Shown: positions 2,820 to 15,553 of the stretch, piece after piece | Layout: each line of letters opens with the position of its first letter | Position numbering within the stretch: the first letter of the stretch is position 1 | NCBI GenBank assembly: GCA_942493285.1 | Contig: OW818691.1 | Span: 7,126,484-7,190,483, forward strand | Direction: 5' to 3' | DNA from: an uncultured Myxococcia bacterium | GTDB taxonomy: Bacteria; Myxococcota_A; UBA9042; PHBI01 | Length of the DNA: 64,000 nucleotides | The notes under the pieces: generated by a model | What the model saw: only the letters and a program-made list of their open reading frames with translations | What the model was told of the DNA's origin: nothing | Database searches by the model: none | Position numbers and translations under genes: made by a program

Positions 2820-3683
2820 ATGATGGAGAATGCACGAAGGCCAGCCGCAACTGCGGTGCGCGCGGCTTGGCTCATGGCGACGCTCGGCGTCATCGGAGTT
2901 GCGCTCGTCACCCACCGGGTCGACGCTTTCGCAGCCGAACCGGCGCCCGAAGCCCCTCCGGCCCCCGCTCCCGCCGGGGACCCGGCACCGCTCCCCGCCG
3001 CTCCGAGCCCGACTCCAGGACCCGCTGTGCCCGGCCCAACTCCAGCTTCCCCGCCCACAGGTGCGCGTGGGACCGAAGCCGGCGGGACCCCTGCCGGTGC
3101 GGATGAGGTGCATGACTTCAAGCTCCGCGAGCTCGAGGAGAAGGTCGTCAATCTGAAGGAGAAGGTCTTCCGTTCGAAGACCCGTCTCCTGCTCCTCAAA
3201 GAGCGGCTCCTGAATGACGTCATCGCCGAAGCCAAGGTCGTGATCTTTCACGAGAATGACATGGGATCGAGCTTCAAACCCGTGTCGGTCCTGTATCACC
3301 TCGACGGCGAGAAGATCTACTTCCAGGACGACAGCACCAAGATGCTCGAGGACACCGCAACCTTCGAGATCTTCAACCAGAATCTGGTTCCGGGAAACCA
3401 CGTGCTCTCAGTGGAGATGGTCTATCGAGGCGACTCGGCGCTCTTCGCCTACCTCAAGGACTACCTCTTCAAGCTCCGCGCGAGCTACACGTTCTACGCG
3501 ACGAAGGGCAAGATCACGACGGTCCGCGCCATCGGCTATCAGAAGGGCGACATCACCTACGACCTGCGTGAGCGTCCCTCCATCACGTTCGACGTCAAGC
3601 AGGTGAGCTACACCGCCGAACAAGCGGGTGTCGCCCCAGCCGCCCCGGGCGCAGCAGCCACCCCCGAGGGCACGCCGAAGTGA
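2820..3683 (+). CDS. Hypothetical membrane-anchored/periplasmic protein (first gene of the Agl-Glt-like cluster)
   Basis: 287 aa. N-terminal hydrophobic segment (AAWLMATLGVIGVALV), Pro/Ala-rich linker, coiled-coil (LRELEEKVVNLKEKVFRSK) and a beta-rich C-domain. Its stop overlaps the next ORF start (GTGA at 3680-3683). No domain recognised by eye. Confidence 0.5.
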   Translation: MMENARRPAATAVRAAWLMATLGVIGVALVTHRVDAFAAEPAPEAPPAPAPAGDPAPLPAAPSPTPGPAVPGPTPASPPTGARGTEAGGTPAGADEVHDFKLRELEEKVVNLKEKVFRSKTRLLLLKERLLNDVIAEAKVVIFHENDMGSSFKPVSVLYHLDGEKIYFQDDSTKMLEDTATFEIFNQNLVPGNHVLSVEMVYRGDSALFAYLKDYLFKLRASYTFYATKGKITTVRAIGYQKGDITYDLRERPSITFDVKQVSYTAEQAGVAPAAPGAAATPEGTPK

Positions 3684-14113: not shown

Positions 14114-15553
14114 ATGGTCGCCAACGACAAAATGAAGCTCCTCCGCGTCGCCGTCGTGCAAGACCGCCGGGTGGTGGAAGAGCGCCTCATCCGGGGCGAA
14201 GGTGACATCACCATCGGTACGGGCACGAAGAACACGTTTGTCGTGAAGGGCAACGTGCCCAAGCAGACGACGGTCTTCGAAGGCCGGGGTCACGGGCGCT
14301 TTGCACTCGTGTTCGAGCGGGGCCAGGACGGTCGCATCGAGCTCGAGTCGGGCAGCGACAAGTTCACGCCGAGCGAGCTCGCGGACAAAGGCATGGCCCA
14401 GAAGAAGGGCAAGGCGTTTGCGATCGAGCTGAGCGACAAGGCGCGTGGCAAGGTGTCTGTCGGCGACGTGTCGATCCTGTTCCAGTACGTCGACCCCCCG
14501 AATGCGGCGATGCGTGCACCCCTGCCGATGGCGGTCAAGGGTGGCATCGTCAACCAGATCGAGTGGCCATTCCTCTACATCATGGCGGCCTCGTTCATCC
14601 TCTTCGGAGGGTCGACGACCGGGCTCGACATCTGGTGGAAGCAGACGGGCCAATACTATTACAGCCCGTCCTCGGCCGAGCGCACTCGGCTCTACGATCT
14701 CATCCGGGCCGAGGTGCAGGCCAAGAAAGAGAAGGAGCCCGAGAAGGAGAAGCCGGAAGACGAGAAAAAAGAGGACGCTGCCGTTGCGGCTGAAGCTGCC
14801 GAGGCCGCACCGGCTCCCGAGCCCGAGAAGCCCAAGCCCGGCCCCTCCAAGAAGCCTGCGGCACGAGTCGGCAAGGACGCGCCGCGCGAGACCAACAAGA
14901 CCAAGCTCGCGGCCGCGGTGAAGCAGAAGACCTTCCTCCATGTGCTCGGCACGACCGGTGGCACTGGGCCGGGCGAGCTCGACACACTGGGCGGCGGTGT
15001 TCACGCGCAGAACATCGCGAACGCGTTCGACCTCGAGGGTGGTATTGCCCAGAACCGCGAGAGCGGGGCCGCTGGTGGTGTCTTCGTCGGTGGGCCGCAG
15101 GCGGCCGAGGCGGGTGACGGGCAGAAGTACAAGACCTTGTCGGCAGGCGAGGCCGGCGGCGAGCGCCTCACGACGACCCAGGTCAAGACGGCCGAGAAGG
15201 CCAGTGAAGTGAAGATCAACGCGAACGTGCGAGACGGCTCGGTGTCGGGTCAGGAGGGCGCTGGCTCGATCGACAAGGACTCGGTCGCGCGAGTGTTCTC
15301 GCGCCGCAAGAGCGCCATCAAGTACTGCTATGAGCGGGCGCTCAAGCTGAACTCGAACGTCAAGGGCAAGGTTGTGATTCGTTTCACGATCGGCCCTGCT
15401 GGGCGCATCACCTCGGTCCAGGCGTCGCAGAACACGACGGGTGATCCGGGTATCGCGGACTGCATCATCGAGAAGGTGCAGGGTTGGCGCTTCGACCCGC
15501 CCAGCGGCGGCTCGGTCACGTTCTCGTACCCGTTCCTGCTCGACACGAAGTAA
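14114..15553 (+). CDS. TonB-C-domain membrane protein with cytoplasmic N-terminal domain (GltG/GltJ/NfsG-like)
   Basis: RBS AGGAGA precedes ATG at 14114 (the ORF-track start at 14072 is rejected). About 160-aa N-domain, TM (FLYIMAASFILFGG), K/E-rich then Pro-rich linker, and a C-terminal TonB-C-like fold (…RKSAIKYCYERALKLNSNVKGKVVIRFTIGPAGRITSVQ…GWRFDPP…). Confidence 0.65.
   Translation: MVANDKMKLLRVAVVQDRRVVEERLIRGEGDITIGTGTKNTFVVKGNVPKQTTVFEGRGHGRFALVFERGQDGRIELESGSDKFTPSELADKGMAQKKGKAFAIELSDKARGKVSVGDVSILFQYVDPPNAAMRAPLPMAVKGGIVNQIEWPFLYIMAASFILFGGSTTGLDIWWKQTGQYYYSPSSAERTRLYDLIRAEVQAKKEKEPEKEKPEDEKKEDAAVAAEAAEAAPAPEPEKPKPGPSKKPAARVGKDAPRETNKTKLAAAVKQKTFLHVLGTTGGTGPGELDTLGGGVHAQNIANAFDLEGGIAQNRESGAAGGVFVGGPQAAEAGDGQKYKTLSAGEAGGERLTTTQVKTAEKASEVKINANVRDGSVSGQEGAGSIDKDSVARVFSRRKSAIKYCYERALKLNSNVKGKVVIRFTIGPAGRITSVQASQNTTGDPGIADCIIEKVQGWRFDPPSGGSVTFSYPFLLDTK

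Follow-up and report, generated by a model that had tools for sequence, protein, structure and literature searches.

A probable single-locus Glt-type core complex in an uncultured Myxococcia bacterium, related to the Agl-Glt and Agl-Nfs machines

Outside the Myxococcales, the genes for GltC, GltD, GltE and GltG lie contiguously with those for the AglRQS motor and form a core complex (Luciano et al. 2011, PMC3169522). In Myxococcus xanthus and Archangium, the gliding genes occupy three loci, G1 (gltD-J), G2 (gltK-B-A-C) and M1 (aglRQS). In the related Agl-Nfs machine, the motor moves the Exo polymer, which leaves the cell through the Wza-family exporter ExoA (Wartel et al. 2013, PMC3858216), and modular variants in deltaproteobacteria have already been noted (PMC3858216). 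Here, we analyze a 12.7-kb cluster of nine long co-directional open reading frames (ORFs) at positions 2820-15553 (+) of a 64,000-nt stretch of contig OW818691.1 (assembly GCA_942493285.1, positions 7,126,484 to 7,190,483), hereafter the window, from an uncultured Myxococcia bacterium. This kind of system was described in 2011-2013, and the cluster is an ordinary member of the described family.

We read the cluster as a Glt-type core complex, a compact single-locus relative of the M. xanthus Agl-Glt and Agl-Nfs machines, and give this reading a probability of roughly 0.75. The predicted proteins support a content of the seven published core gene types, a GltF-like gene and one extra conserved gene, laid out as follows:

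2820..3683, + strand: g1, 287 aa, conserved extra gene, no Glt counterpart identified
3680..6256, + strand: g2, 858 aa, GltC-like (NCBIfam GltC match and intermediates)
6256..9975, + strand: g3, 1239 aa, GltD-like (full-length alignment to the Archangium gltD-position protein)
9972..11123, + strand: g4, 383 aa, GltE-like (NCBIfam GltE and reciprocal best hit)
11191..11484, + strand: g5, 97 aa, GltF(CglF)-like (NCBIfam CglF, Archangium GltF match, position)
11860..12498, + strand: g6, 212 aa, TolQ/ExbB/MotA-family proton-channel subunit (Pfam MotA_ExbB, neighbor-joining tree)
12568..13233, + strand: g7, 221 aa, TolR/ExbD-like without the transmembrane Asp (Pfam ExbD, weak)
13421..14053, + strand: g8, 210 aa, TolR/ExbD-like with the transmembrane Asp (Pfam ExbD)
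14114..15553, + strand: g9, 479 aa, GltG-like (493 aa from TTG 14072)

The first-pass annotation, made from the letters alone, had proposed an Agl-Glt/Nfs-like motor core, contiguous as in the proposed ancestral core. Glt homology, collinearity with Archangium and the clade of the channel protein bear this out, and the nine genes lie at one locus on one strand in an order kept in relatives. It had counted eleven genes; nine are present, which is also the number in its own list, and the larger gaps lack a coding signature. The ORF calls agree with its strand, order and sizes (287, 858, 1239, 383/384, 97, 212, 221, 210 and 493 aa), and a frame scan gave the nine ORFs a third-position GC content (GC3) of 0.78-0.87 in a window of 62-69% GC. 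A tenth or eleventh small gene was sought in the 375-nt gap 11485-11859 and rejected, with stops in all six frames and a GC3 of 0.57-0.69; the GC3 frame scan found no candidate ORF in the 187-nt gap 13234-13420. Of the stop-start overlaps it listed, two do span 4 nt (GTGA at 3680, ATGA at 9972); the third, at 6256, contains the string ATGA but overlaps by 1 nt (tgATG). The overlap at the GTG start of g2 (3680, with an alternative ATG at 3698) is not kept in relatives. For g9, ATG 14114 (479 aa) is most likely the start rather than TTG 14072, because its homologs are 477-483 aa long and cover 97% of the longer ORF.

Compared with the core complex of Luciano et al. (2011), the cluster would have the same seven gene types in one co-directional locus, with the motor adjoining the GltG-like gene. 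It adds the GltF-like gene, a type reported only in Myxococcales and Bdellovibrionales, and the 287-aa gene.

A GltG-family alignment of 7 sequences was scanned against one genome per species, which yielded 69 loci. One of these, from Archangium violaceum Cb vi76 (L028), is on its profile scores a bona fide gltD-E-F-G-H locus, since four of its proteins pass the NCBIfam equivalog cut-offs (GltE 759 bits, CglF/GltF 134, GltG 995 and CglE/GltH 174). CglF is GltF (PMC4488436) and CglE is GltH (PMC9946355). The GltD-position, GltE, GltF and GltG proteins of this locus are collinear reciprocal best hits of g3, g4, g5 and g9, so that the gltD-gltE-gltF-...-gltG order of the gliding locus recurs in the cluster; Archangium GltH and the next protein of the locus had no match in the window. 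The cluster differs from the M. xanthus and Archangium gliding systems in that identities are 24-41% with scores below the equivalog cut-offs, and in that the motor and the gltC-like gene share one locus with the rest instead of being spread over three.

Among the periplasmic proteins, Pfam recognized only tetratricopeptide repeats (TPRs) in g2-g4 and nothing in g1 and g5. The g2 protein has a signal peptide, a TPR region resembling GltC at residues 82-514, and a coiled-coil and Pro-rich tail of ~340 aa whose coiled-coil part is not in the GltC profile. Its match to NCBIfam GltC (E 6.8e-12, 45 bits against a cut-off of 450) places residues 82-514 on profile positions 111-569 of 622; TPR similarity inflates such scores, and the comparison included no certified GltC sequence. 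The L014 homolog of g2 matches the same model at E 1.3e-20, and 527-529-aa proteins encoded directly upstream of GltD-like genes in two further loci (L033 and L056) reach 207-216 bits. The best window match of these GltC-like proteins from all three loci is g2, which we accordingly call GltC-like, linked to GltC through intermediates. The first two genes had been set aside in the first-pass annotation as not obviously part of the canonical set; this holds for the 287-aa g1, whereas the 858-aa g2 appears to belong to a published core type.

The g3 product has a signal peptide, a Pro-rich stretch and a long TPR or otherwise helical body with four YbgF/CpoB-type TPR units. It aligns over 1118-1130 aa with the Archangium gltD-position protein (24% identity, E 4e-49 to 1e-49, reciprocal best hit) and is 51-84% identical in syntenic relatives; NCBIfam gave no GltD-specific match either for g3 or for the Archangium protein. 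It would be a GltD-like central periplasmic scaffold. The TPR protein g4 matches NCBIfam GltE (E 8.6e-24, 84 bits against a cut-off of 225), and it and Archangium GltE are each other's best hits (E 1e-11); the signal peptide of g4 carries no lipobox Cys, a difference from the gliding system. The small secreted or membrane-anchored g5 lies in the same position as GltF, after the GltE-like gene, matches NCBIfam CglF at E 5e-4 (20 bits against 90), and is the best window match of Archangium GltF (E 5e-7). The expected resemblance of the TPR proteins to GltD and GltE is thus found, and extends to GltC. Together, these comparisons show homology and collinearity with GltD, GltE, GltF and GltG, and support them for GltC.

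The g9 protein links this periplasmic set to the motor. Pfam detected a weak TonB_C domain, and NCBIfam GltG matched at E 3.7e-38 (131 bits against a cut-off of 650), with the alignment starting at profile position 212. The AgmX/PglI C-terminal domain model was the sole NCBIfam match above its cut-off (E 3.1e-28, 97.7 bits against 40), and the C-terminal domain of Archangium GltG is 38-41% identical to that of g9 (E 4e-19). An AlphaFold2 model built with 56 homologs predicted two domains with confidence, one all-beta (9-126) and one alpha/beta (370-478), and between them a membrane helix (151-182) and a disordered stretch. The first domain is a cytoplasmic FHA fold and the last a TonB/TolA-type C-terminal domain, with two conserved Cys; the disordered linker is rich in Lys/Glu/Pro and Gly. 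This is the TonB-C protein with a cytoplasmic N-domain that the first-pass annotation had described, and it has the layout of M. xanthus and Archangium GltG (FHA fold, membrane helix, disordered linker, TonB-type C-terminal domain).

Pfam found no FHA domain in g9, and phosphothreonine binding by the predicted fold is doubtful, since the usual Arg of the IGR motif is read as Thr in the sequence. The protein also lacks the extra N-terminal FHA seen in GltG-type proteins of 593-712 aa. According to the M. xanthus model (PMC11761067), GltG has its membrane-proximal FHA domain seated on the motor, and GltI, a cytoplasmic scaffold, is bound by the N-terminal one. As this GltI-binding domain is missing from g9 and no GltI- or GltJ-like gene was matched in the window, the machine is probably not wired to the gliding-specific cytoplasmic platform. 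The only other GltG match in the window is at the domain level, to the FHA domains of a 663-aa protein that has two of them; its gene and the next one, for a hybrid histidine kinase that contains PAS and receiver domains, together lie at 41842-45812 (+).

One TolQ-like and two TolR-like paralogs had been reported for the motor, and Pfam confirmed this gene content: g6 matches MotA_ExbB (E 8.7e-23), g8 matches ExbD (E 6.8e-9), and g7 matches ExbD just under the cut-off (E 3.3e-5). The M. xanthus and Archangium motor has the same composition of one channel and two TolR paralogs. Against NCBIfam, g6 scored 38.6 bits for TolQ (cut-off 221) and 28 bits for ExbB (cut-off 206), and g7 and g8 had no match. 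Among the matches listed of 7480 in a protein search with g6, all relatives were at least 62% identical. In phmmer comparisons, channels from Glt clusters reach E 1e-24 to 1e-99 against g6, compared with only 1e-5 to 1e-12 against E. coli TolQ and ExbB, while TolQ-like proteins outside Glt clusters show the reverse pattern, being closer to the E. coli proteins. Neither g7 nor g8 detects E. coli TolR or ExbD with phmmer, unlike other myxobacterial TolR proteins from the fetched loci. The channel g6 retains the residues equivalent to TolQ T145 and T178, but E173 is replaced by Lys.

A neighbor-joining tree of the channels was calculated on 210 columns, with E. coli MG1655 TolQ, ExbB and MotA included and support taken as bipartition counts over bootstrap replicates. 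The 15 Glt-context channels were split from E. coli TolQ/ExbB/MotA and from the non-Glt myxobacterial TolQ/ExbB in 100 of 100 replicates, so that g6 does not fall with canonical TolQ/ExbB and joins the channels of other Glt-type clusters. The clade takes in channels from the four-gene-type core clusters of Chitinispirillaceae/Fibrobacterota. Core motors of Fibrobacter and deltaproteobacteria were previously found to group with AglRQS (PMC3169522). Because g6 groups with the Fibrobacterota core channels that Luciano et al. (2011) placed there, we infer, through gene context and the 2011 phylogeny and with a tree that contains no M. xanthus AglRQS, that it is AglR-like.

The two TolR-like proteins differ at the column of TolR D23. 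The Asp is missing in 13 of 13 g7-type proteins, which have G, S or A in close relatives (Gly in g7 itself) and N in the distant and Fibrobacterota clusters; it is present in all 15 g8-type proteins. The gene order, Asp-less first and Asp-bearing second, is fixed from Myxococcota to Fibrobacterota (loci L007-L047), which suggests an ancient asymmetric TolR heterodimer. The published proton-path residue of the M. xanthus motor is AglQ D28, and the D28N change kills function; AglR binds both GltG and NfsG (PMC3858216). A structural model of AglR5-AglQ-AglS with GltG is also available (PMC11761067).

The extra gene g1 matched no Pfam or NCBIfam model. Its product has an N-terminal hydrophobic helix or signal peptide (9-31), a disordered Pro-rich linker (32-93), a long helix (94-136) and a beta-sandwich (138-263). 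Across 169 metagenomic proteins, identity over the C-terminal 190 residues is 60-98%, and this part is better conserved than most of the cluster. The gene is always found directly upstream of the GltC-like gene, even in the divergent locus L014 (46% identity). A profile search returned 1262 representatives at 50% clustering, nearly all of them unnamed metagenomic proteins. The name "dihydrolipoamide acetyltransferase" given by NCBI to g1-type proteins was rejected as an artifact of the Pro/Ala-rich linker.

The gap before the motor genes contains a further conserved element:

11627-11654, + strand: promoter-like motif CTTGACC-N13-CGGGTAAG, 206 nt upstream of g6, in the 375-nt gap

It consists of TTGACC, a 17-nt spacer and TAAGGG, and is the single match in the window (0 expected by chance). 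Each of 12 relatives' loci has one match at the equivalent place, the closest relatives carry a one-mismatch version, and in the alignment of the relatives' intergenic regions the motif stands out as a conserved island. No Rfam match was found in positions 1-20000. The pattern suggests an internal promoter with a leader of ~200 nt and a separate transcript for the motor genes and g9.

The order obg, g1-g9 holds in metagenome-assembled genomes (MAGs) labelled Myxococcota or Deltaproteobacteria, from 80-92% down to ~40% protein identity. All nine ORFs are intact, and their full-length identity to close relatives is 72-93%. The arrangement is not due to chance, because the same order recurs in relatives after the same upstream genes, which in the window are:

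to 540: IF-2B-family gene, partial, upstream of the cluster
796-1107: L21 gene, upstream of the cluster
1211-1468: L27 gene, upstream of the cluster
1590-2633: obg, upstream of g1

Downstream of the GltG-like gene, three further genes are present in 16 of the 16 relatives' loci that reach far enough, including those 80-82% identical to the cluster. The first encodes a ~190-aa secreted protein. The second encodes a beta-barrel-like protein of 420-470 aa with an aromatic C-terminus and a weak Pfam BBP2_2 match (E 7e-5). The third, starting 7-60 nt past the barrel gene, encodes a 204-220-aa Poly_export-SLBB protein that reaches 115 bits with the PEP-CTERM exporter model. It fits the definition of a class-3 outer-membrane polysaccharide export (OPX) protein in PMC9603273, according to which proteins of this class have an 18-strand barrel as their partner. 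The continuation past the GltG-like gene was seen at 11916-14605 in locus L078 and 11799-14680 in L001; in relatives a DnaJ gene follows the OPX gene. The pair resembles the class-3 OPX/18-strand barrel translocons formed by WzaX, WzaS and WzaB with MXAN_7418, MXAN_3226 and MXAN_1916 (PMC9603273, PMC9601211), with the differences that it is not in the window and that its barrel is recognized by the weak BBP2_2 match. No Wzx/Wzy/Wzc or glycosyltransferase genes adjoin the barrel/OPX pair in the loci examined.

In the window, synteny with all relatives ends at 15554-15561, 1-8 nt past the g9 stop, and DNA similarity to five of them (L078-L082, 76-85%) stops at the same positions. A tblastn search of the 64 kb with the relatives' downstream proteins, covering the next seven conserved genes, found none of them. 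After the break lie a Uma2-family putative nuclease gene (15696-16694, +) and a MatE efflux gene (16742-18148, -), followed by a prolyl oligopeptidase gene. The junction showed neither a tRNA nor meaningful repeats, and the contig of a 92%-identical relative (L082) ends 49 nt after its g9 stop. The break at 15554 may be either a real rearrangement or an assembly join.

In locus L014 (1278-14012, from a MAG labelled Proteobacteria), g1-g2-g3-g4-g5-g9 are present with the ~190-aa, barrel and OPX genes after them, and TolQ and TolR genes are absent. As this locus has the export module without the motor and the window is the complementary case, the two modules are separable, as the motor is in M. 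xanthus.

A second lineage also links the core to an exporter. Five Fibrobacterota core clusters from Chitinispirillaceae (L029, L036, L040, L041 and L043) carry genes for two large TPR proteins, a three-protein motor (one TolQ-like, two TolR-like) and a GltG-like protein of ~350 aa, directly followed by a ~300-aa Poly_export/SLBB (OPX) gene. They differ from the present cluster in their two large TPR proteins, where here the GltC-, GltD- and GltE-like proteins are three separate ones, and they add the OPX gene only, whereas relatives of the cluster add the ~190-aa protein, the barrel and a class-3 OPX. Luciano et al. (2011) refer to an unnamed "additional gene" of the core complex, and the Fibrobacterota OPX gene could be the one they meant; no mention of Wza, polysaccharide or export was found in their supplements.

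Considering the described motors, the following mechanism can be proposed. Five TolQ-like subunits would surround a heterodimer of the two TolR-like proteins, one of which carries the proton-binding Asp, and proton flow would drive the membrane helix of the GltG-like protein. The long disordered linker of g9 would cross the peptidoglycan, and its TonB-like domain would dock on the GltD-like scaffold, itself decorated by the GltE-, GltF- and GltC-like proteins, so that force could be passed toward the outer membrane. The machine is probably uncoupled from the gliding-specific cytoplasmic and adhesin platforms, since g9 has no N-terminal FHA and the window has no gene for GltI, GltJ, GltA, GltB, GltH or GltK. 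Its likeliest job would be the proton-powered handling or export of a surface polysaccharide, like that of Agl-Nfs with the Exo polymer, because the adjacent outer-membrane partner in relatives is a beta-barrel with a class-3 OPX protein. Both the force path and the cargo are inferred. Since the Glt scores stay below ortholog level and neither the outer-membrane platform nor the cytoplasmic coupling was found in the window, the cluster is best likened in its working to the inner-membrane and periplasmic half of Agl-Glt/Nfs.

Several points weigh against reading the cluster as such a core complex. All Glt scores, for GltC, GltE, CglF and GltG alike, lie far below the NCBIfam equivalog cut-offs, so that functional orthology with Glt is unsupported; the cluster is, by sequence, a homolog of the gliding machine, and a gliding or sporulation role would be predicted by homology alone, below the ortholog level. 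The channel tree is a neighbor-joining tree on 210 columns with few outgroups, and the motor clade is tied to AglRQS through context and the 2011 phylogeny, without M. xanthus AglR/AglQ/AglS or Nfs sequences. The stoichiometry and the TolR heterodimer are drawn by analogy with models. The polysaccharide link comes from the gene neighborhood in relatives only, with the export module missing from the window, and g1 has no functional assignment.

The alternative that survives best, at a low probability, is that the cluster belongs to a true gliding machine, a functional ortholog of Agl-Glt whose missing parts are encoded elsewhere, as in M. xanthus. The GltC, D, E, F and G types and the three-gene motor are present and collinear with gltDEFG, and GltF has been reported only in Myxococcales and Bdellovibrio, lineages with gliding (PMC3169522). 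No GltA/B/H/I/J/K-like protein, and no CglB, was found in the 64 kb, using NCBIfam and Pfam on the other long ORFs and the Archangium comparison, with GltH searched by sequence; as the M. xanthus parts are scattered, absence from one window is weak evidence. Other observations argue against gliding: the Archangium locus passes for all tested proteins the cut-offs that the cluster falls well below, g9 lacks the GltI-binding FHA of the M. xanthus model, and the adjacent outer-membrane genes of relatives encode a porin-like barrel together with a protein for polysaccharide export instead of GltA/B/K. Moreover, the core complex alone has been held insufficient for motility (PMC3169522).

A spore-coat assembly machine of the Nfs type is improbable. 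As described, Nfs consists of Glt paralogs that are powered by AglRQS and act on a polymer exported by Wza (PMC3858216), and the likeness lies in a Glt-type transducer tied to a polysaccharide exported through the Wza family, a gene of which lies directly downstream in relatives of the cluster. Here, however, the link is genomic and found in relatives only, no NfsA/B-type barrel genes were seen in the cluster, and the cluster has its own motor where Nfs borrows AglRQS. Its housekeeping neighborhood (L21-L27-obg), kept across a broad uncultured lineage, also argues against a sporulation-specific system.

We consider it about equally improbable that the cluster is a stranded or decaying remnant left after loss of the export module, or the product of an assembly join. 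The end of synteny just past the g9 stop, the absence of the relatives' next seven genes, the similar contig end in the 92%-identical relative and the Uma2-family nuclease gene at the junction would all fit such an event. Decay is disfavored by the intact ORFs with their strong GC3 bias and high identity to close relatives, by the retention of key residues (Asp in g8, two Thr in g6 and two Cys in g9) and by the retained promoter-like motif. The motor genes of the L014 genome lie elsewhere, which implies that the modules of the system function unlinked, and no repeats or tRNA mark the junction.

Least likely is that the cluster encodes a divergent Tol-Pal or ExbBD-TonB system, serving envelope integrity or uptake through receptors: it shares the families MotA_ExbB, ExbD and TonB_C and their three folds, presumably also a 5:2 stator driven by protons that acts on an effector like TonB or TolA, the YbgF/CpoB-type TPR units of g3 and, in TolQ and ExbB, the nearest solved structures, but its canonical form was rejected on the low TolQ/ExbB scores, the failure of g7 and g8 to detect E. 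coli TolR/ExbD, the 100/100 split of the channel tree, the specific similarity to GltC/D/E/F/G and the window content, as Pfam and NCBIfam searches of all other long ORFs found no tolA, tolB or pal and no TonB-dependent receptor. The cluster also has two non-identical TolR paralogs, one of them Asp-less, an effector of the AgmX/PglI subtype with a cytoplasmic FHA fold, and TPR scaffolds as partners instead of TolB/Pal or TonB-dependent receptors. The first-pass annotation had likewise judged a Tol-Pal or ExbBD-TonB role unlikely from the absence of these genes.

Several other genes in the window are worth recording. A urease operon (46635-51139, +) encodes the gamma, beta and alpha subunits, UreE and, after a gap, UreG (CobW/HypB/UreG family). 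An 848-aa protein (60634-63180, -) shows an unusual pairing of collagen triple-helix repeats with OmcA/MtrC-type multihaem cytochrome domains. An MbnP-family protein (33704-34618, -) is encoded beside a 248-aa familyless protein (32936-33682, -), possibly as a copper-related periplasmic system. A 1811-aa protein (36250-41685, -) with FG-GAP, HYR and Dictyostelium-type repeats is probably a large surface protein.

For the Glt-type core complex proposed here, the role outside gliding myxobacteria has been open since 2011, and the present locus adds a conserved single-locus example from a widespread uncultured lineage. It offers three handles: the constant genomic link to a polysaccharide-export pair across two phyla and the obligatory pairing of a TolR paralog that carries the proton-binding Asp with one that does not, both from comparative evidence, and a GltG-like protein whose FHA folds are reduced to the one nearest the motor. 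With these handles, a role of the core in powering the handling of surface polysaccharides can be put to the test, and the conserved 287-aa gene is, on comparative evidence, a further lead. More tentatively, the nine genes and the three found in relatives could form one conserved twelve-gene machine, a Glt-type transducer hard-wired to a class-3 OPX/beta-barrel polysaccharide translocon, which may include two undescribed components, the 287-aa stalk-and-sandwich protein and the ~190-aa coiled-coil protein. If this holds, the ancestral job of the Agl-Glt/Nfs machines would have been to power polysaccharide export or deposition, with gliding a later re-use, and the heterodimer of Asp-less and Asp-bearing TolR proteins would be an ancient feature of that motor.

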